A stretch of DNA of 64,000 bases from Calditrichia bacterium (GTDB taxonomy: Bacteria > Calditrichota > Calditrichia > JAJRVZ01), in contig CAVZSQ010000022.1 of NCBI GenBank assembly GCA_963777955.1, forward strand, positions 959,021 through 1,023,020, given 5' to 3'. The notes beneath the pieces are model-generated. The model saw nothing but the letters and a program-made list of their open reading frames with translations. It had not been told where the DNA came from and ran no database searches. The position numbers were made by a program, and so were the translations under genes. Shown piece after piece: positions 7,145 through 25,163 of this stretch; positions within the stretch are counted from its first letter, which is position 1; each line of letters opens with the position of its first letter.

Positions 7145-8863
7145 ATGCAAAATTTCAGTACTCATTTCGGTAAATATAATCAGAAGGTAAACAGTACGGT
7201 CCAGCAGTTACAGCAAGATCGCTGCCTGGCCAGGATTGCTGAGCATGATTACACGCTCTGGCAGAATAAACCGGCTGAAATAACCAACCGGCTGGGCTGG
7301 CTTAAAAGTCCGGAAGTTATGCTGCCGGCAGTCAATGATATAAATCAATTCACGGCCGAAGTGCGGGCGGCAGGTTTTAAGCAGGTTTTGCTTTTAGGTA
7401 TGGGCGGATCGAGTCTGGCCCCGGAGGTTTACAGCCGTTCGTTCGGTACCAAGGCCGGATTCCTTAATCTTTCTATTTTGGATAGTACTGATCCCGGGGC
7501 AGTTCTGGCCAGGGAGCACAGCCTGGACCTCGAACATGCCTTGTTCATTGTCGCCACAAAATCCGGAGGTACGGTTGAGACCTTTTCCTTTATGAAATAT
7601 TTTTACAACCGCATGTGTTCGGTGGTGGGTACGGAACAGGCGGGAAAACACTTTATGGCCATCACTGATGCCGGCAGCGGATTGGAAAAGTCTGCTGTAG
7701 AATTGAAATTCCGAAAAATATTCCTGAATGATCCGGAAATCGGCGGTCGTTATTCAGCGCTGTCTTATTTTGGATTGGTACCGGCAGCGTTGACCGGCAT
7801 CGATATCAAAGAATTACTCAACCGTGCTGAACAGATAAAGCAACAGACTTTTAAGGATAACGACAGCGAAGCCTTGCAGTTGGGTGCGGCTATGGGAGTG
7901 CTGGCCGCCCAGGGCATCGACAAACTGACGCTGATCCTGACACCGCTTATCGCTTCATTCGGCGCCTGGATCGAACAACTGGTAGCGGAAAGCACCGGCA
8001 AGGCAGGGAAGGGTATCCTGCCTGTCGATGGTGAAGAATTGCTCACACCGGGGCTTTATCCGGCAGACCGGTTATTCGTATACCTGCGACTGACCGGTGA
8101 TGAGCATCATGACGATCATATCAGCAATCTGATCAATGCCGGTAAACCGGTAATTCAAATTCAACTGCGCGATGTCTATGATCTTGGCCGGGAAATGTTT
8201 CGCTGGGAACTGGCTACGGCCATTGCCGGTGTGGTGCTCGGCATCAATCCTTTCGACCAGCCCAATGTGGAATCAGCCAAGGTCCTGGCCCGGCAAATGG
8301 TTGCGACTTTTCAACAGACCGGAAAACTTGCGGAAACCGCGCCGACTTTAGTGCACCAGGGTATGAAAATATATGCCGGCATTAATGCCGGCCAGCCACC
8401 GGCAGAAAACTTTTCGCAACTTATTTCGTCATTCTTTAAATCAGCACAAACAACAGACGATAAATCTAAACCGCGGAGTTACTTGTCGCTGCAGGCATAT
8501 CTGAAACCGACTGAACAGGTCGACAATGCCCTGCAGGGATTGCGGAATAAAATTCAATTAAAATATAACCTGGCTACCACCACGGGTTACGGTCCGCGTT
8601 TCCTGCATTCAACCGGACAGTTACATAAAGGGGACAGTGGCCACGGGCTGTTTATCCAGCTTTTAGCCGGTATGCCCGAAGATCTGGCCATCCCGGATAC
8701 ACCGGGACTTCGGCCGGAATCGTCGATCAGTTTTGGTATCTTGAAGAATGCCCAGGCCATGGGGGATCGACAGGCTTTATTGAATGCCGGTCGCCAGGTG
8801 ATCAGTATCGATCTGGGAAATGATATCTTAAAAGGACTTAAGACTTTATCAGACGTTATCTGA
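7145..8863 (+). CDS. pgi: Glucose-6-phosphate isomerase
   Basis: GMGGSSLA, TKSGGTVET, IGGRYSALS, EQLVAESTGK, NPFDQPNVE. Confidence 0.9.
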   Translation: MQNFSTHFGKYNQKVNSTVQQLQQDRCLARIAEHDYTLWQNKPAEITNRLGWLKSPEVMLPAVNDINQFTAEVRAAGFKQVLLLGMGGSSLAPEVYSRSFGTKAGFLNLSILDSTDPGAVLAREHSLDLEHALFIVATKSGGTVETFSFMKYFYNRMCSVVGTEQAGKHFMAITDAGSGLEKSAVELKFRKIFLNDPEIGGRYSALSYFGLVPAALTGIDIKELLNRAEQIKQQTFKDNDSEALQLGAAMGVLAAQGIDKLTLILTPLIASFGAWIEQLVAESTGKAGKGILPVDGEELLTPGLYPADRLFVYLRLTGDEHHDDHISNLINAGKPVIQIQLRDVYDLGREMFRWELATAIAGVVLGINPFDQPNVESAKVLARQMVATFQQTGKLAETAPTLVHQGMKIYAGINAGQPPAENFSQLISSFFKSAQTTDDKSKPRSYLSLQAYLKPTEQVDNALQGLRNKIQLKYNLATTTGYGPRFLHSTGQLHKGDSGHGLFIQLLAGMPEDLAIPDTPGLRPESSISFGILKNAQAMGDRQALLNAGRQVISIDLGNDILKGLKTLSDVI

Positions 8864-8878
8864 GCGATTTCTGATATT

Positions 8879-11800
8879 CTAATCGGTTGCTGCCAGTTCG
8901 CGCATACCCTGAATTTTGATATTCAGCCGGTTTTCCAGGGTAGTGATGTTGGCCAGGTCTTTTTCAGTAACGAAGTGCACATCCAGCAATCCGCCCGCTT
9001 TATAACCGGTACGCTGGAAATTCATTTCATCCAGTGCTAAACTCCACCCTTCCAGCCAGGTCAATAAACCCTGCTGCTGAGTTTTATTACCTTTGAAATT
9101 AATTAACAGATCGATATCGCTGCCGGCCTGGGCAGTAGCATTCTGGGTACTGCCCACGACGTAAATGGCTTTAACTCCGAAGCGTTTTTTATCCAGTTGT
9201 GAGGCAAGTTTTTCGGTCATATTCATCCGCCAGCGCCAGTGTTCTTCTTTGGAGACGATACCGTACAGGGTTACCGGCAATGGTTGGATTCGCAATGCTT
9301 CTTCACGGTTACTGAGCAAGCCCAGGGCCTGGTCCAGATCGGCATTCATCAGAATCTGCAGCACCATACCATTTGTTATCTGGGGAACTTCCAGCACATG
9401 AATAATATGACTGAGATGCTGAAACTGGGGTAGAATCTTGCCCAGTGAATTATGCGACTCGTTCAGAAAGCCGGAATTGAAAATAATTCCTTCATCATCG
9501 GGATAAAGGGGCAGATAGCGGATACCGGCTTCCACCAGGTCCTGGAAAAAGTGAGTTCCAAAAGAAAGATCAGGTACATAATTTCCCTTTTTGCGGGCGA
9601 TCTCGATTAATACCGCGCAATTATTAATCTCTGAATAGGTAACATTAACACCCAGTTTAATATCGCCGCGACTGCCCCAGCGTCCGGGTCCCATCAGGAT
9701 GAATTGCCGCCTGGGTAAAATTTGATTGAGTTTCCCGACCACCCTGCCGATGGTGGCCAGTTCCGGTAATTCGACGATGGCGTTGTATTGCTCCGGATCC
9801 ACATAAACGATATGGCTGATATTGGGTACGGTTCCATTGGATATAAAACGGTTGGCATTGAAAATAATCCGCTCCTGTGGAATATCCACCGGGATCTGGG
9901 AGGGGGCATCATAATGGGAATAACTTTGCGGCCGGCATTGTAACAGATAAAAATCTTCACCGTCTGAAGCAAATTCAATATCTACCGGTGTGGCCAGGGC
10001 ATTCTGCAGGGTTTTCATGATGGTGTACATTTTTTTGACAAAGTCGGTATCATTGCTCAATCCATCAAAAGTCACCACGGCATCGACATTGGAAAAATCC
10101 AGGTTGATGCTGAGCGGTTTACGTAAATGTTTGTCGGCATGCAATGAGATAATTTTTTCAATAGCCGGGTACTGGTTGCCGAATTTTGTCAGCAGTTCAT
10201 CGATGTTGATGGTTTCAAAGCAATTCGCTTTCAGATTAAGCACATCAATTTTGTGCGGAGAATAGCGCAGCCGTTCTTCCAGGCCGACGGTTGCACGCAG
10301 GGCCGGTTGGCCCGGTGCGATCAGGATCGGATAGTCATCGCTGAGCCGGTCCACAGCCCGGGTACCCAGGCCCGGTACCAGGCGGATCAGGCCGTCTTCG
10401 CGTTTGATCCGCGGCGACCAGCAGAATTCATTGTTGCTGAAAGCCACACCGGCATAGGCAGGGAAAAAGTAATCTCCCACAGTCCGGCCGACCACTTGCT
10501 GGATCATGATGCCCATTTCTTCATGGAAATCGGTCAGGCCGCGCTCAGCCCGGTATTGCATTGGATCAGGTCCGAGAGTCGAAGCATAAACTTCGGCGAT
10601 GGCATCTAACAGTGCGTCGAGTCGTTCGTTTTTGGAACCCTGATTGCCCAGGAACAGACTTTTATATTTTCCCGAAAAAGCCGATCCCAGCCGGTCTTCC
10701 AGTAAACTCGAACTGCGCACAATCAGCGGTACTACCCCAAAATCGTCCAGAGCCATGGAAAGTCCCTGTACAATTTCCGGCGGAAAACTGGAGTTTTTGA
10801 ATAACACGATCAACTGCGGATATTCTTTACGGATATCGTCGATCGATTTATATTTCTGATCGGTCATGTCTTCAAGATTATTATAATGCATAAACTGGAT
10901 CATGGTATCGGAGGTGAGATACCAGGTTTTAGGAATTTTGATATCGCGCAGAATATTATCCAGCTTGGCATTTTGTTCCAGAACCCGCCGGGCCAGAAAG
11001 ACACCGGCGCTTTTACCGCCCAGTTTACCATGACTGCCGACCGGACAAACCAGGTGTTGGACCAGTTCATGAAAATCGCTGATCCGGATAAAATTTTTGG
11101 CAATGGTAACAAATTCCAGTTGATCGGTGAAGAAGCGGCGGATCAGGGCTGCCCGCACTCCGATACGGGCCGAAGGGGCCAATTCCAGCCCTTCGGGAGC
11201 GAGTTTGTAATAGCGGCGCAAGGCTTCGCTGACTTCGGGCAGGGAAGAACTGTTACTGGCAGTCGTACGTACCAGGAAATTGGTTTTATCATTCTTGACC
11301 CATTCCTGGATCAGCGCCATTATATCCGCATCGCTGAGGTGGCGTGCAGCGATCTCAAAAACACGCTGGCTGAACAGACTGGAATCCTTGGACATTTGCC
11401 TTCTGCATGGGGGAATTGGTTTCGGACAAAAAGTCCTGCGAGCCATAACGGAGCAAAGGAATAAAATCCTGCAATACTTTTTCGGCATCGACAATTCCCC
11501 GCCAGATCAGGTGATTCAGCATTCTCCGGGATACTCTGGTGAATTCATCCGGATCGGTCCGCTGCAGCAGATCCAGTACCGCCTGCCAGTCGGTCGATCG
11601 GTTCTCGGCGATTACCCGCCTGGTTGAAGCCATTTTATCGTATACCAGTTTCAGTTGCTGAAACATGATATAGTGTCCAACCCGTTTGGCAATCGAATTC
11701 AGTACCCGTCTTTCCTCTTTTAAGAAAGGGGCCTTCATCGGCCACAGGTTTATCATCCAGGTAAAAAATTTTGATCCAGCCAACCACCCTGTCCTGAACG

Positions 11801-12067
11801 GCGATATCTTCGCTGATAAACCAATGGGTTTCCTTGAAGTTTTCTGAAGTGTAGGTAAAATCCTGGTAGACGATCTTGACGCAACTTAGTTCAGGGAATT
11901 GCATGCCCGATGGCAGGATTTTAATTATTTTATTAAAAATATCATCTATACTGGAAGCGGTATTCTGCAGTGCTTCCTCGACAGCATACATGCAGTTTAA
12001 TTCCTTGGCCCTTTCTTCAAGGATATCCAGCAGTTTATCTTTGGATTTGATTAATGGGATCAGGCAT
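8879..12067 (-). CDS. GAF-like + PEP/pyruvate-binding (PEP synthase N-terminal ATP-grasp) + nucleotidyltransferase-domain protein; 3 apparent frameshifts
   Basis: Reconstructed from ATG at 12067 plus ORFs 11635..11991, 11355..11783 and 8879..11494; LGGKSAG, IVRSSSLLED, FSGKYKS, DIEFA, LLQCRPQ; C-terminal GST...SDIDL. Confidence 0.8.
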
Positions 12068-13353
12068 TAGATCCACCCGCGGTCTTTGCAGGCCTGGGCT
12101 ACGCGACTGATGGCGATGACGTAGGCCGCATCACGCATATACAATTTGCGGGATTTGGCCAGGTCGGAAACGGCATGGAACGCTGCGGTCATTACCGTAT
12201 CCAGGCGCTGTAGAACCTCATTTTTTTCCCAGTAGTAATTCATATTGCTCTGCACCTGCTCGAAATAACTGCAGGTCACTCCGCCGGCATTGGCCAGGAA
12301 ATCGGGGATGACAAATATGTTATTTTTTTCCAGGATCTTATCGGCTTCAGGGGTGGTAGGACCATTGGCACCTTCGGCAATAATACGCACTTTTTTATGG
12401 AGCCTACCGACATTTTCACCGGTAATCTGATTTTCAATTGCAGCCGGCATGAGAATATCGACTTCCTGTTCAAGCCAGGCTTCAGCAGGTAAAATTTCAT
12501 AACCCAGTTCCCTGGCTTTGGTTTTATTGATCCCGCCAAAGCGGTCGGTAATTCCACGCAACTCGTCCAGTTTAATTCCGCTTTTGCGGCGGTAGGTATA
12601 GGAGGTCTGGTCGGTCTGATCCCAGCAGGCCACACATAACGTATTGCCCCCCAATTTTTCGAATAATTCGATGGCATACTGGGCCACATTACCGAATCCC
12701 TGCACGCTGGCAGTGGTGTTTTCCGGTTTTATACCCATATTTTTGAGGGCTTCCCGTAATGTAAAGACCAGACCATAACCGGTGGCTTCGGTGCGGCCTT
12801 GCGAACCACCCATTCCTACCGGTTTTCCGGTGATCAGACCCGGATATTTAGCACCGTGGATTATTTCATACTCATCGAGCATCCATAACATATGCTGGGC
12901 ATTGGTCATCACATCCGGCGCAGGCACATCCTGTAAAGGACCCACATTGCGGGCCAGTTGACGAATCCAACCGCGGCAAATCAATTCCTGTTCACGTTGA
13001 CTGAGATTATGGGGATCACAGATCACGCCCCCTTTTCCGCCGCCGAGAGGGATATCTACTACGGCACATTTCCAGGTCATCCAGGTGGCCAGGGCGCGAA
13101 CTGTATCAATCGTTTCATGAGGATGGAAACGGATACCCCCTTTACTGGGGCCCCGGGCATCATTATGCTGGACCCGGAATCCGCGGAAGACCTTGACTTT
13201 GCCGTCATCCATCCGTACCGGTATGGAAAATTGAAATTCACGCATCGGATTGCGCAACAATTCTCTGGCTGCAGGATCAAGGTTTATCTGATCAGCTACT
13301 TTATCAAACTGAGCCTGAGCCATTTCAAAAGGATTAAAAGACTTTCCTTGCAT
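12067..13353 (-). CDS. gdhA: Glu/Leu/Phe/Val dehydrogenase, probably glutamate dehydrogenase
   Basis: KGGIRFHP, GGGKGG, DVPAPD, GRTEATG, GFGNV, EGANGP, NAGGV. Confidence 0.9.
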   Translation of the reverse strand: MQGKSFNPFEMAQAQFDKVADQINLDPAARELLRNPMREFQFSIPVRMDDGKVKVFRGFRVQHNDARGPSKGGIRFHPHETIDTVRALATWMTWKCAVVDIPLGGGKGGVICDPHNLSQREQELICRGWIRQLARNVGPLQDVPAPDVMTNAQHMLWMLDEYEIIHGAKYPGLITGKPVGMGGSQGRTEATGYGLVFTLREALKNMGIKPENTTASVQGFGNVAQYAIELFEKLGGNTLCVACWDQTDQTSYTYRRKSGIKLDELRGITDRFGGINKTKARELGYEILPAEAWLEQEVDILMPAAIENQITGENVGRLHKKVRIIAEGANGPTTPEADKILEKNNIFVIPDFLANAGGVTCSYFEQVQSNMNYYWEKNEVLQRLDTVMTAAFHAVSDLAKSRKLYMRDAAYVIAISRVAQACKDRGWI

Positions 13354-13443: not shown

Positions 13444-13531
13444 GACTCATCCCCCAATTACCTATCCCCCATCCCCCTTCCCTTATGTATAAGGGAAGGG
13501 GGTTAAGGGAAGGGGACCGGGGGAATGGGTC
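13444..13531. repeat. Long purine/pyrimidine hairpin (REP-like)
   Basis: CCCCCTTCCCTT-ATGTAT-AAGGGAAGGGGG core with outer GACTCATCCCCC...GGGGGAATGGGTC arms. Confidence 0.65.
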
Positions 13532-18781: not shown

Positions 18782-20381
18782 ATGAATCCGCAGCAGAATT
18801 ATGATGTTATCGTTATCGGTTCCGGGATAGGTGGATTGACCTGTGCCAGTATCCTGGCCCAAATCGGGGGGAAAAAGGTACTGGTTATAGAGAGACATTC
18901 CAAAGCCGGAGGATTTACCCATACCTTTAAACGTGAGACGAAATACGAATGGGATGTGGGCTTGCATTATGTGGGGCAAATGCAAAAAGGTTCTCCCGTC
19001 CGAGCTCTATTTGATCTGATCACTTCCGGCCAGGTGAAATGGAACCGCATGCCGGATCCGTATGATGTTTTTATTTATCCTGATTTCAAGTTCGGGGCCC
19101 GTTCCGGCCGGACTAATCTAGAACAGGACCTGGTAGCCCGTTTTCCGCAGGAAGAACAGGCCATAAAAAAATATTTTAATGATCTGAACAGGCTGAGTGC
19201 CTGGTCGTCCCGTTTTGTGCTTGGCGAGCACCCTGCCCGGTTGGCTGCATTTTATTTCTCCTGTGTTTACTGCCAGAGGATCAGATCTGGCAGCACAAAC
19301 GACGGGTGAGTACCTGCTGCGCAACATCAATGATCCGCACCTGCGGGCGGTCCTGGTCTCACAATGGGGAGATTATGGCTTACCGCCGGTCAGCAGTTCA
19401 CTGGTAGTTCATGCTGCAATTGTCAATCATTATCTGGATGGCGGTTATTATCCGGCCGGAGGCTCAAAAACGATTGCCGATTCAATTATTCCGGTTATTG
19501 AACAGGCCGGCGGCCGGGTGCTGCTCAATCATCAGGTGACCGGAATTCTGATTCAAGACAAGCGGGCAACAGGTGTTACTGCTATAAAGAGAAAAAGTGA
19601 TGACAGCACTGAGCAAATATTTTTGGCCGCACAGGTGGTTTCGGATGCAGGAGCCTGGATAACCTATGGACAACTTCTGCCTGATAGATATCAACATCCC
19701 TTCGTTAAACAGGTGAAGAATTATCCGGGAGGTGTTGCCAATGTCACTTTGTATGTCGGATTCAAAGAGGATCCGCGCGGGATTTTACCTGTTCAGGGTG
19801 AAAATTATTGGATTTATGATGGATACGATCATGATGATTTGTACGAGCGGCGGAATGCATTACTAAAGGGGGAAGCCCGGGCGGCATTTCTTTCATTTCC
19901 TTCACTGAAAAGGGGGGAGGTACAAAGCCATACTGCTGAAATTATGTCCTTTGTGGATTATGAACCGTTTAAACGCTGGGCCGACCAGCCGTTAAAAAAA
20001 CGGGATCAGGAGTATCAGCAACTTAAAGAGAAAATATCACAGGCGCTGCTCGACCTGGTAGAAAAACACCTGTCGGGATTTAAGCAGCAGGTGGCTTACT
20101 ATGAGTTATCCACTCCTTTAAGTACCGAGTATTATACCGGTTTTCCCGAAGGTAATATTTACGGCATCCCGGCCACACCGTCCAGGTATAGGCAGAAATG
20201 GATCGGCCCGCGGACACCGTTAAAAGGATTATTTCTGACCGGTACGGATGCTGTGGGACACGGGATTGTCGGAGCCCTGCTGGGTGGGGTGGTGACAGCA
20301 GCGTTGATACTGGGTCTGCCATGGAGTATGATCAAGATATTCAGAACTGCTCTCAAATACAGCAAGAATTTACCGGAATGA
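18782..20381 (+). CDS. Phytoene desaturase/retinol saturase-like FAD oxidoreductase (frameshift near 19225)
   Basis: GSGIGGL, WDVGLHYVG, YYPAGGS, STPLS, LFLTGTD. Confidence 0.8.
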
Positions 20382-21211: not shown

Positions 21212-22469
21212 ATGGTTAATCATGAAGTAAAAGATTTAAAATTGGCAGCCGAAGGCAAGCGGCGCATTGAATGGGCTGATGGCGATATGCCGGTACTGAA
21301 GAAAATCAAAGAGCGGTTTAGCAAAGAAAAACCGCTCAAAGGTAAGAAATTATCGGCCTGTCTGCATGTTACATCCGAAACCGCCAATCTGATGCGTACT
21401 TTACAGGCCGGCGGAGCAGAAATAATACTGGTGGCGTCCAATCCGCTCAGTACTCAGGATGATGTGGCCGCCGCCCTGGTGGCCGAATATGGTGTGTCGA
21501 CCTATGCTGTCAAAGGCGAAGATCATCAGACTTATTACAATCATATCCATATTGCCTTAAAACAGGATCCCGCGATAACAATGGATGATGGTGCCGATCT
21601 GGTTTCAACCATGCATGCGGATTATCCCGCCAAGTGTACGCAGGTCATTTGTTCCATGGAAGAGACTACCACCGGTGTGATCCGTCTGCGGGCTATGGCT
21701 AAAGATAAAGCCCTGCGTATTCCGGTAATCGCGGTCAATGATGCTGAAACTAAATATTTGTTTGACAACCGTTATGGTACCGGTCAGTCTACGGTGGATG
21801 GTATCATTCGGGCTTCTGATTTTCTGGTGGCCGGAAAAAAGATCGTGATTGCCGGTTACGGCTGGTGTGGTAAGGGATTTGCTATGCGCATGCGCGGCAT
21901 GGGCGGCAATATCATTGTCACCGAGGTAAATCCAATTCGTGCATTGGAAGCAGACTATGGACGGTTTCTCAGTCATGCCCATGGTGGAAGCAGCAAAGAT
22001 TGGCGATCTGTTTTGTACCCTGACCGGTGATATTCATGTTCTGCGCCAGGAACATTTTGCCGTGATGAAGAACGGTGCGATCGTAGCCAATTCCGGTCAT
22101 TTCAATGTGGAAATTAATATTCAGGAATTGGAAGCCATGGCGGTCAAAAAGACCAGGGGTGTGCGCAATTTTATCGATGAGTATGAAATGAAAAACGGGT
22201 GCAAGATCTATTTATTGGCTGAGGGACGTCTGATTAATCTGGCGGCCGCAGAAGGGCATCCGGCCAGCGTGATGGACATGAGTTTTGCCACGCAGGCTCT
22301 GGCTACCGAGTATGCCCTTAAAAATAGACTGGAAATAGGGGTATATAATGTTCCGCGTGAGATAGAACAATGGATCGCTATAGCTAAACTGGAATCCATG
22401 GGTGTGCAAATTGATCAACTCACGGCTGAACAGAAGGCCTATCTGACTTCCTGGGAAATGGGCACCTGA
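21212..22469 (+). CDS. ahcY: Adenosylhomocysteinase (frameshift near 21952)
   Basis: [45 protein letters not shown]. Confidence 0.92.
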
Positions 22470-23022: not shown

Positions 23023-25163
23023 ATGAACGATTCGATCATCCGTAACCAGTACGCTGTTGCCGGCATGGATTGCGCGGAGTGTGCAAGCCATGTGGAACAG
23101 GAAATATCTAAAATCGCAGGGATAACCTCGGTGCAGGTGAATGCTGTGACCGGTAAAATGCATATCTCCTCACGCCAGCACATAGCCGAACAGGTTATCC
23201 AGCAGGCAGTAAGTCTGGCCGGTTATACTCTTATAGCCCAGTCCGGCGCAGCGGACCCGCAGGCCGGGCAGGAAACCAAAAATATACCCCTGGCCGCAAA
23301 TAATGGTAAAGTGCTCTTACCTGCTCTATTATCCGTATTTTTTATTCTGGCGGGACTAGCTGCTGATCATCTTTTTCAATTTCCGGATCTCAGCGCAGCT
23401 CTGTATCTGGCAGCAATCATCAGCAGTGGTTATCACATGGCTGTCAAGGGAGTTAAAGAAGCTCGTTCGATTCAGGCTGGGAATGAACTTTCTGATGACG
23501 GTGGCGGTCGGCGGCGCCGTGATTATCGGCGACTGGCTGGAAGGGGCCACGGTTGTTTTCTTATTCGCGCTGGCCCGCTATCTGGAAGATCGTACCATGG
23601 ACAAGGCCCGGCGTTCTATCGGAAACCTGATCGAGCAGAAACCCAGGACTGCCACCCGGATTATCGATCAGCAGCATGTACTGGTACCGGTCGAAGCGGT
23701 CGCAGCCGGGCACCTGCTGGCGGTTAAGCCGGGTGAGCAAATTCCGGTAGACGGAAAGATCGAACAGGGAAATTCCACGGTAGATCAATCCAGTATTACC
23801 GGTGAAAGTATGCCGGTGGCATTGGCAGTGGGCGATGCGGTATATGGCGGCACCCTGAATCAGAACGGTTTTCTGGTTATCCGTGCTGAACGTTCGTTCA
23901 GCAATTCGACTTTTTCGAAAATAGTCGAACAGGTAGTTGAGGCGCAGGCTCAAAAAGCTCCCCGGCAGAAGTTTATCGATACGTTCGCGAGTTTTTACAC
24001 ACCTGCCGTACTGGTGATCGCAATTCTGATTTCCTTGATACCTCCGCTGTTTTTTGCCGCACCATTTATGGACTGGTTCTATCGCGCACTGGTCATGCTG
24101 GTGATAGCCTGTCCCTGTGCCCTGGTAATTTCGACGCCGGTGACAATAGTCAGTGCCCTGACCGCAGCCATGCGCCGCGGTATCCTGATCAGAGGGGGTC
24201 TGCACCTGGAGAATTTTGCGCACCTGCGGGCTATAGCTTTTGATAAAACCGGTACACTGACCGAAGGTAAATTCAAGGTGCAGCAGGTTTTTCCGGTCGG
24301 GGAGCATAGCCCTGAACAAGTGCTGCAGATAGCTGCTTCCCTGGAAAATAAATCAAACCATCCTATCGCCCGGGCCATCTGCAAGCAGGCCGACCTGAAT
24401 AATATCCGCCCGGCTGAAGTGCGTGATTTTTCATCACTCGCCGGGCAGGGGCTGGAGGGTGTGATCGACAACCAGCGCTATGTGTTAGGGAATCATAAAT
24501 TATTCGAACAGCGCAACCTGTGCAAAACTGAAATTCATGGATTATTAGATAACATCGAGGATCAGAATCACACGGCTGTGCTGGTAGGTAACCAGACTAC
24601 CGTTCTGGGTATTATCAGTATCGCCGATTCCGTCAGGGCGGAGGCTGCAGTCTGTCATACAGCAATTGAAGAAACAGGGCATCCGTAGAATGGTCCTGCT
24701 GACCGGGGATAATCATCGCACCGCGGCAGCGGTAGCCGAAGGCCTGCGGCTGGACGATTATGCGGCCGAATTATTACCGGGTGATAAAGTCGAAATCCTG
24801 AAAAAATTAAAAACTGAATTTCGTAGCATCGCTATGGTTGGTGACGGAGTAAATGACGCTCCGGCTCTGGCCAGTGCCGATATCGGCATTGCCATGGCTG
24901 CCGCCGGCTCGGATGTGGCTATTGAAACGGCCGATATCGCTTTGCTGGATGATCATCTGGGCAAACTGGGGGTGCTGCGAAAATTGAGCACCATGACCCT
25001 GCGTCTGATCAAGCAAAATATTGCAGTGGCCCTGGGTCTCAAATTGATTTTTCTGATCCTGGCCGCCCTGGGCCTGGCCACTTTATGGATGGCCGTTTTC
25101 GCCGATATGGGCGCCAGTCTGATTGTTATTCTTAATGGCCTGCGGGTGTTATCCCCCAAATAA
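23023..25163 (+). CDS. Heavy-metal (Zn/Cd/Pb) P1B-type ATPase (2 frameshifts)
   Basis: GMDCAEC HMA domain, TGES, CPC, DKTGT, GDGVNDAP across three ORFs. Confidence 0.9.

Follow-up and report, generated by a model that had tools for sequence, protein, structure and literature searches.

A glutamate dehydrogenase gene, gdh, of a Calditrichia bacterium overlaps the gene of a large partner protein that probably controls glutamate dehydrogenase (GDH) in an undescribed way. The two genes lie in a 64,000-nucleotide stretch of contig CAVZSQ010000022.1 (assembly GCA_963777955.1, positions 959,021 to 1,023,020 of the forward strand), which we call the window. GDH connects carbon to nitrogen metabolism and has to be prevented from futile cycling, and to our knowledge dedicated modifying enzymes for the bacterial enzyme are not an established class. 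We consider it rather likely that the control is post-translational and runs through a histidine relay, be it by phosphotransfer or by phospho-dependent binding. The more specific proposal, that a GAF-gated His-relay kinase phosphorylates the GDH encoded beside it, is put forward tentatively. Full-text literature searches, with supplements and most subscription papers outside their scope, returned no description of the family.

In the window the partner gene is broken by frame changes. We treat it as intact in nature, and an intact homolog, P0001, is the stand-in for all protein-level work. The features of the locus are as follows.

12067..13353, minus strand: gdh, glutamate dehydrogenase of a distinct, strongly conserved type (428 amino acids; Pfam PF00208 and PF02812)
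12065..12069, minus strand: TAATG, overlap of the gdh stop and the next start, read from the sequence; P0001 opens with the same residues
8879..12067, minus strand: gene of the 1061-amino-acid GAF/helical/ATP-grasp/His-domain/nucleotidyltransferase protein, with three frame changes (12053, 11724, 11398)
11631..12036, minus strand: GAF domain, residues about 11-145 of P0001 (structural Z 13.2 to 3cit)
11045..11603, minus strand: all-helical domain of no known family, residues about 155-340 (from the model)
9911..11032, minus strand: ATP-grasp domain of the phosphoenolpyruvate (PEP) synthase/rifampin phosphotransferase (RPH) type, residues about 345-718 (Pfam PPDK_N)
9299..9907, minus strand: His domain with GPGRWGS and SFGTHFFQD, residues 720-922; His838 codon at 9551-9553
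8882..9247, minus strand: minimal Pol-beta-type nucleotidyltransferase domain, residues 940-1061 (Pfam NTP_transf_2 above cut-off)

Association of the partner gene with gdh

The partner gene travels with gdh. A survey of the best 80 of 567 confirmed genome loci, from many phyla judging by their titles, found a gdh of some type at 68 loci and the cognate type, that is the type found beside the partner gene, at 67. Where at least 3.3 kb of upstream sequence was available the cognate gdh was present at 62 of 63 loci, the exception being L015. The two genes are co-oriented at 66 of the 67. An earlier note on this DNA had called for such a survey, and the linkage of homologs to gdh that it depended on is borne out.

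The two genes also occur together at the level of whole genomes. Among 61 genomes of the window's phylum, counted by hand at thresholds of at least 67% identity for GDH and at least 50% for the long protein, 47 hold the cognate GDH type, the same 47 hold the long protein and 14 hold neither; kin among these genomes are not independent. Both genes are at most 5 kb apart on one contig in 42 of the 47. Four genomes with two cognate GDHs also carry two long genes, and in G021, where cognate gdh and long gene lie apart, both are retained. The distances between long proteins follow those between their GDHs (rho 0.39, 58 pairs, 0 of 500 shuffles), with kinship not removed. A second GDH in the window's genome, 44% identical and encoded on contig C3, has no dikinase-like neighbour.

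Which part of the protein does this association belong to? It belongs to the ATP-grasp/His core and not to the nucleotidyltransferase, because a distant branch that has neither GAF domain nor nucleotidyltransferase (P0170, 776 amino acids, 39% identical) also follows gdh. In this branch gdh is present at 62 of 79 metagenome loci, and at 47 of the 49 with at least 1.8 kb of upstream sequence, although the loci are partly redundant (75 distinct proteins, many of them close). It lies directly upstream, mostly co-oriented and within 500 bases, and the encoded GDH is mostly of another type (45-57% identical in 57 of 62). Neither a phosphoesterase nor a GAF-nucleotidyltransferase was found at these loci. 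Furthermore, the second long copy of genome G014 and the copy of G020 end before the nucleotidyltransferase, near residue 920, and still follow gdh. In 27 of 50 cases of this phylum, counted by hand, a paralog of about 1000 amino acids with a REC domain has a gdh of another type no more than a few kb away.

The cognate GDHs are themselves distinctive. The GDH of the window aligns to 1euz (E 1e-126) with the invariant GDH columns intact, and one of its three Lys motifs reads GxKGG in the consensus. Across phyla the cognate enzymes are 62-80% identical. About 50 of their shared residues, among them a Trp-Asp insertion within the cofactor domain, are mostly absent from 15 other GDHs compared.

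The partner gene and the domains of its product

The stop of gdh and the start of the partner gene overlap, as the earlier note had seen, and the overlap probably reflects translational coupling. Downstream of it, three frame changes divide the partner gene into four pieces. P0001 has 1061 amino acids and is 96% identical over its last 833 residues; its residues 4-116, 111-222 and 212-1061 map on the window as three segments at 93-96% identity, and its first residues agree with the frame that opens at the overlap. Caldithrix abyssi also has named homologs. Contigs of close relatives from four independent sequencing runs (85% likeness, depth 3-5; relatives, not the same strain) show the window to have a single extra base at 12053 (against X1, X2 and X3), at 11724 (X4) and at 11398 (X1 and X4). 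Because these contigs do without the bases at exactly the three break positions, the breaks are very probably assembly errors, and the length of about 1060 residues at which the earlier note had arrived by correcting three indels matches that of P0001. We reject a real pseudogene, given the intact, 96%-identical P0001 together with the relatives' contigs.

Further split genes were recognized by reading at 191-1847, 18782-20381, 21212-22469 and 23023-25163 of the window, and at L081. They comprise a GDSL hydrolase, a phytoene-dehydrogenase-like gene, an S-adenosylhomocysteine hydrolase, a heavy-metal ATPase and a canonical PPDK, and are consistent with an error-prone assembly. Promoter and terminator scans gave site numbers not above those of shuffled sequence. 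Between gdh and the divergent bioY there is a strong hairpin at 13461-13525 (about -37 kcal/mol folded with its flanks); the genome has similar palindromes at about eight places, so we take it to be a repeat like the repetitive extragenic palindromic elements rather than an element specific to gdh. The convergent neighbour at 7145-8863 is a gene of the glucose-6-phosphate isomerase family and is not recurrent at other loci.

An AlphaFold2 model of P0001 (150 alignment rows, pLDDT 89.8) has five parts. These are the four domains that the earlier note had read from its motifs (LEERAKELNC, EGPFLKEE, GPGRWGS, SFGTHFFQD and GS...DID...D, all of them present), and a helical domain at about 155-340 that it had not mentioned. 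The predicted GAF-like module does have a GAF fold: VIA-align gives Z 13.2 and a root-mean-square deviation of 2.1 over 123 residues to 3cit, the GAF domains of NifA and PtsP follow at Z 11.2, and more than 30 further GAF chains were matched. No Pfam GAF model matches the partner protein. The same module is also found on histidine kinases, a Ser/Thr kinase and Crp-like regulators. For the helical domain, the ESM Atlas returned only unnamed clusters with scores below 0.9.

The ATP-grasp domain was likewise recognized correctly. PPDK_N matches residues 348-724 (E 2e-58), and the structure is closest to rifampin phosphotransferase (5hv1, Z 27.0, vs Z 12.2 for PPDK). Residues K351, R450, E697, Q709 and R711, which we take to be the equivalents of the catalytic residues of PPDK, are kept in 104 of 104 full-length rows.

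The candidate phospho-His of the earlier note, His838, is invariant in the same 104 rows. In 129 of 129 rows spanning three paralog types the G, R, G, E, H and F of the His domain are invariant as well. Folded alone, the domain reaches a pLDDT of 94.9 and places His838 at the start of a helix, with a strand following. Compared with 48,161 chains, four of its top five matches are phosphohistidine swivel domains (Z 5.1-5.4): the pyruvate kinase tail 2e28, the PPDK carrier 2fm4, residues 387-517 of maize PPDK and residues 756-867 of RPH. A second structural comparison agrees (Z 5.6 and 5.3). The domain exceeds canonical swivel domains by about 80 residues, and the phosphohistidine domain PF00391 has no Pfam match in the partner protein. 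As the Z values are low, with further proteins of the swivel fold ranked just behind, we call the predicted swivel fold likely and homology with swivel domains probable. The His domain is probably an elaborated phosphohistidine swivel domain.

At the C-terminus G971, S972, D983, D985 and D1028 form the Pol-beta motif GS...DxD...D, as predicted, and Foldseek finds weak matches to the MNT proteins 7bxo, 2rff and 8xeh. PPDK_N and nucleotidyltransferase models are the only Pfam matches of the protein. Pfam detects no pyruvate/PEP-binding barrel, and all 1061 residues of the model are taken by other domains.

A variable accessory layer

Most loci hold more than the two genes of the window. A short paralog of about 580 amino acids, consisting of ATP-grasp and His domains with all catalytic residues kept, sits between gdh and the long gene at 56 of the 80 loci. 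It is sometimes fused to the long gene (L037, L072 and P0122), and the short-to-long junctions overlap at 29 of 42 loci. A calcineurin-like phosphoesterase is present at 45 of the 80. Among the 60 loci with enough flanking sequence, 39 have short paralog and phosphoesterase, 9 the short paralog only, 12 neither and none the phosphoesterase alone. In the genome survey 19 of 61 genomes, each of which also has the long protein, gave a phosphoesterase and 16 a short paralog; 14 gave both. Of the 47 genomes with the long protein the other 28, including that of the window, gave no phosphoesterase match. The window's genome, which is 92% complete, also gave no match for the short or REC paralog. The window shows the minimal, two-gene form of the system.

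In 37 of 45 copies the phosphoesterase reads GNDD, and its consensus does not have an Arg after GD. As far as the part of PMC2190708 considered here goes, a His at the GNDD site and an Arg after GD are tied to monoesterase and cyclic activity, the enzymes being otherwise acyclic diesterases. Because it has GNDD in place of this His and no such Arg, the phosphoesterase would fit the removal of a nucleoside monophosphate (NMP) mark. A search of solved structures for this companion enzyme returned no match. A faint Adenyl_cycl_N match (E 0.09) had suggested a cyclic-nucleotide module made of a cyclase, the GAF domain and a cyclic-NMP phosphodiesterase. We set this aside because the phosphoesterase is without the His that PMC2190708, in the part considered, links to cyclic activity.

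A family of stand-alone GAF-nucleotidyltransferases (260-305 amino acids) is followed by the phosphoesterase at 5 of 5 loci examined. Two of these pairs sit between REC-type dikinase genes, and three are without gdh in the flanking DNA examined. Units of GAF-nucleotidyltransferase and phosphoesterase that have no dikinase core were seen at L083:2644-4367, L084:7136-8862 and L123:627-2400; those of L083 and L084 adjoin a PHP-UvrD helicase gene. In the ESM Atlas the stand-alone GAF-nucleotidyltransferase forms its own family. Such a unit is a candidate minimal writer/eraser pair.

The three aspartates of the nucleotidyltransferase are kept in 52 of 52 proteins examined. All 39 of 39 full modules retain K974, against 6 of 13 minimal modules; in the window the residue is Gln. 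A tail motif, found in 35 of 39 full vs 5 of 13 minimal modules, is lost in the window. These changes suggest that the nucleotidyltransferase of this lineage may be weakened, or may act as a nucleotide sensor.

Several variants of the modules were noted in passing. The GAF module is fused to a Crp-like regulator (cyclic-NMP-binding plus helix-turn-helix) at L126:997-1995, L145:808-1929 and L148:817-1953, and at two loci such a fusion has a REC-type dikinase gene on one side and an NADP-type gdh on the other. A supercluster at L085:4440-17883 (genome G035) packs three dikinase-like paralogs, GDHs of three types and the phosphoesterase into 14 kb. A fourth, very divergent paralog of 555 amino acids with two His motifs, GSHFL and GTHFL, is found near the module at L013:13004-14671 and L014:12394-14058. 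Finally, P0190, P0206 and P0254 (850-880 amino acids) have an N-terminal part that looks KaiC/RecA-like by eye, with no Pfam match, and that may be another exchangeable head on the same core. For reconstitution, the two-gene form of the window is the simplest version and the L085 supercluster a good template.

Possible mechanisms and known systems

We infer every chemical step of the following scheme, beside the observed architecture, conservation, linkage and co-occurrence. Firstly, the ATP-grasp domain would cleave ATP and load a phosphate on His838, leaving AMP and Pi, as the conserved residues and the chemistry of PEP synthase and RPH suggest. Secondly, the His domain would swivel and pass the phosphate on. 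As no small-molecule barrel is present, the acceptor would be a residue of GDH, whose activity or direction would be switched. Thirdly, a metabolite at the GAF domain, most plausibly a carbon/nitrogen signal, would set the rate. The nucleotidyltransferase would be an accessory layer that, in full modules and with the phosphodiesterase, writes and erases an NMP mark, probably on the kinase pair, and this layer looks reduced in the window's organism. Swappable sensor heads (GAF, REC and others) on a constant ATP-grasp and His core would fit a regulator.

A bolder version of this scheme, which strikes us as possible yet rather doubtful, is a widespread, undescribed class of bacterial protein kinase, a 'protein, water dikinase', that moves a phosphate of ATP by way of a swivelling phospho-His onto GDH. 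It would work in paralog pairs with exchangeable heads and would itself be switched by a cycle of GAF-nucleotidyltransferase and phosphodiesterase. The bolder version would amount to a two-tier GDH cascade, built from unrelated parts, that parallels GlnD-PII-GlnE for glutamine synthetase. If true, phosphorylation of GDH would put the His relay of dikinases to a new use and would be a testable candidate behind older hints on the GDH of Bacteroides, which may concern this family. The title of a 1996 paper is said to speak of trans-acting genes downstream of gdhA in Bacteroides, and the GDH of B. fragilis is reportedly inactivated reversibly in vivo. A link between the REC paralog and gdh in Bacteroides itself was looked for and could not be confirmed.

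Several observations weigh against phosphorylation of GDH. Every biochemically solved relative of the fold (RPH, PEP synthase and HpeI) acts on a small molecule. The authors of the study of VadK (Rv1127c) propose competitive binding, and the part of PMC13400623 considered here reports no transfer to a target. In GDH itself, a comparison of conserved residues with the 15 other GDHs gave no outstanding acceptor. The earlier note's phospho-His stands as far as conservation goes, but the swivel match of its domain is weak (Z 5.1-5.6, a range in which common arrangements fall, with other swivel-fold proteins close behind), Foldseek returned nothing at E <= 0.001, sequence searches gave nothing meaningful, and profile comparisons matched neither PDB sequences nor the His domain of the PPDK encoded in the same genome. 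Linkage has gaps too. In genomes of the order Bacteroidales, that of L044, gdh lies within 1.5 kb of the REC paralog at only 7 of the 30 top loci and within about 6 kb at none of five further loci, with no other recurrent neighbour apparent by eye, and two 703-amino-acid relatives have no gdh within 14 kb. A prediction of the complex of GDH with P0001 residues 155-340 and 720-1061 scored 0.00, but its controls did not fold either, so that it counts neither for nor against the proposal.

Would GDH need to be modified at all? In a non-covalent switch like the one proposed for VadK (PMC13400623, in the part considered), the phospho-state of His838 would decide whether the protein attaches to the GDH hexamer, with inhibition or activation as the result, leaving GDH unmodified. 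The same linkage and co-occurrence data fit this. The probable translational coupling, together with the short-to-long overlaps at 29 of 42 loci, suggests a fixed stoichiometry, and the roughly 50 residues characteristic of cognate GDHs are as expected of an interface. However, a binding switch would seem not to need paired paralogs with a complete active site each, or a phosphoesterase, and with the gdh start upstream a stoichiometric regulator of 120 kDa would presumably be costly. We take this switch to be a serious candidate, if on balance an unlikely one.

It is also unlikely that the protein is a small-molecule dikinase or ligase coupled to GDH, with the phospho-His group passed to a substrate, product or cofactor of GDH. 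In the boldest form an ATP-driven imine would be made from 2-oxoglutarate and ammonia and handed to GDH for high-affinity assimilation, ATP-driven imine chemistry being known for PigC-type condensing enzymes; in milder forms NAD(H) or glutamate would be phosphorylated. The closest structures are indeed small-molecule kinases, the enlarged His domain could form a substrate site from its invariant G-R-x-G loop and Glu, and a shared metabolite would account for the link to amino-acid ABC transporters and to GDHs of several types as well as a shared protein target would. Yet no known substrate-binding domain is present, the short paralog consists of ATP-grasp and His domain only, and it is regulators that more typically carry sensor heads and pair one to one with a single type of GDH.

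The earlier note had also allowed for nucleotidylation of GDH. In such a GlnE-like switch the nucleotidyltransferase would adenylylate or uridylylate GDH, the phosphodiesterase would reverse this and the dikinase core would regulate the cycle. The invariant acidic residues, the stand-alone family with its constant neighbour, the acyclic-diesterase signature of the phosphoesterase (by the part of PMC2190708 considered) and its confinement to genomes with the long protein all agree with a working cycle. Against GDH as its target, the gdh link persists in a branch and in copies without any nucleotidyltransferase. Because of the placement of the stand-alone pairs, three without gdh nearby and two between dikinase paralogs, the kinases rather than GDH would be the targets of nucleotidylation. 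The window's lineage has lost K974, which all full modules keep, and its genome, like those of most carriers of the long protein, gave no phosphoesterase match. We consider this switch improbable, and the claim of the earlier note is weakened to that extent.

That the gene encodes an ordinary PEP synthase or PPDK that is beside gdh by chance, as its PPDK_N domain and source names such as 'pyruvate, water dikinase' would have it, is hardly credible, as the earlier note had judged, given the missing barrel, the NCBIfam scores of 50 bits (cut-offs 598-883) and the canonical PPDK encoded elsewhere in the genome. Databases list thousands of family members as PEP synthase or PPDK, a label by which metabolic models would be misled.

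Judged on the defining features that were checked, the partner protein is not a PEP synthase, PPDK, RPH, GlnD or GlnE. It shares with RPH, PEP synthase, PPDK and HpeI the ATP-grasp fold, the catalytic residue set and a His-bearing domain, probably of the swivel type, but it has no pyruvate barrel and adds sensor domains and a constant link to gdh. Unlike in RPH, the His domain follows the ATP-grasp domain directly with no substrate domain between them, and the NCBIfam model of rifampin phosphotransferase scores 28 bits vs a cut-off of 999.

With GlnD and GlnE it has in common the Pol-beta nucleotidyltransferase motif, a sensor and a nitrogen enzyme as neighbour, and the separate phosphodiesterase of full modules could replace their removing domain. 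The nucleotidyltransferase of the partner is minimal, however, and without the helical substrate domain. PF08335 (GlnD_UR_UTase) matched neither the partner protein nor the genome, at 92% completeness, with the control positive in 3 of 14. PII was dismissed as a target: Tyr51 of PII is the target of GlnD, and the PII of the window's genome has Glu at position 51. By reading, a nitrogen cluster elsewhere in this genome (G000:C13 341163-347112) holds a sigma-54 activator with a GAF domain, an ammonium transporter, this PII without Tyr51 and glutamine synthetase. The last domain also resembles MNT of the type VII MNT-HEPN toxin-antitoxin systems in size and fold, through weak matches (NCBIfam MntA 19.6 bits vs a cut-off of 60), but it forms one protein with a dikinase core, and the neighbouring genes are gdh and that of the glucose-6-phosphate isomerase. 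No HEPN gene was among the recurring neighbours, in a survey that included no search aimed at HEPN.

Regulation of GDH by a partner protein, as proposed here, has precedents in the GudB-GltAB complex of Bacillus subtilis and in GdhA/APRTh of Thermus thermophilus, although those partners are not ATP-grasp/His-relay enzymes. By analogy, the partner protein may work most like VadK, its closest precedent. VadK is a PPDK cut to ATP-grasp and His domain that autophosphorylates and co-purifies with neighbouring methylcitrate-cycle enzymes, according to the part of PMC13400623 considered. To that extent both proteins combine an ATP-grasp with a His domain, have no pyruvate domain and are encoded near the metabolic enzymes that they are thought to control. 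They differ in elaboration and perhaps in origin. VadK is a cut-down PPDK, whereas the ATP-grasp domain of the partner is nearer to RPH than to PPDK in a structural comparison. The partner's His domain is enlarged and no longer carries the signature known to Pfam, and further elaborations are the GAF, helical and nucleotidyltransferase domains and the paralog pairs. The putative target of the partner protein is GDH, where that of VadK is the methylcitrate-cycle enzymes.

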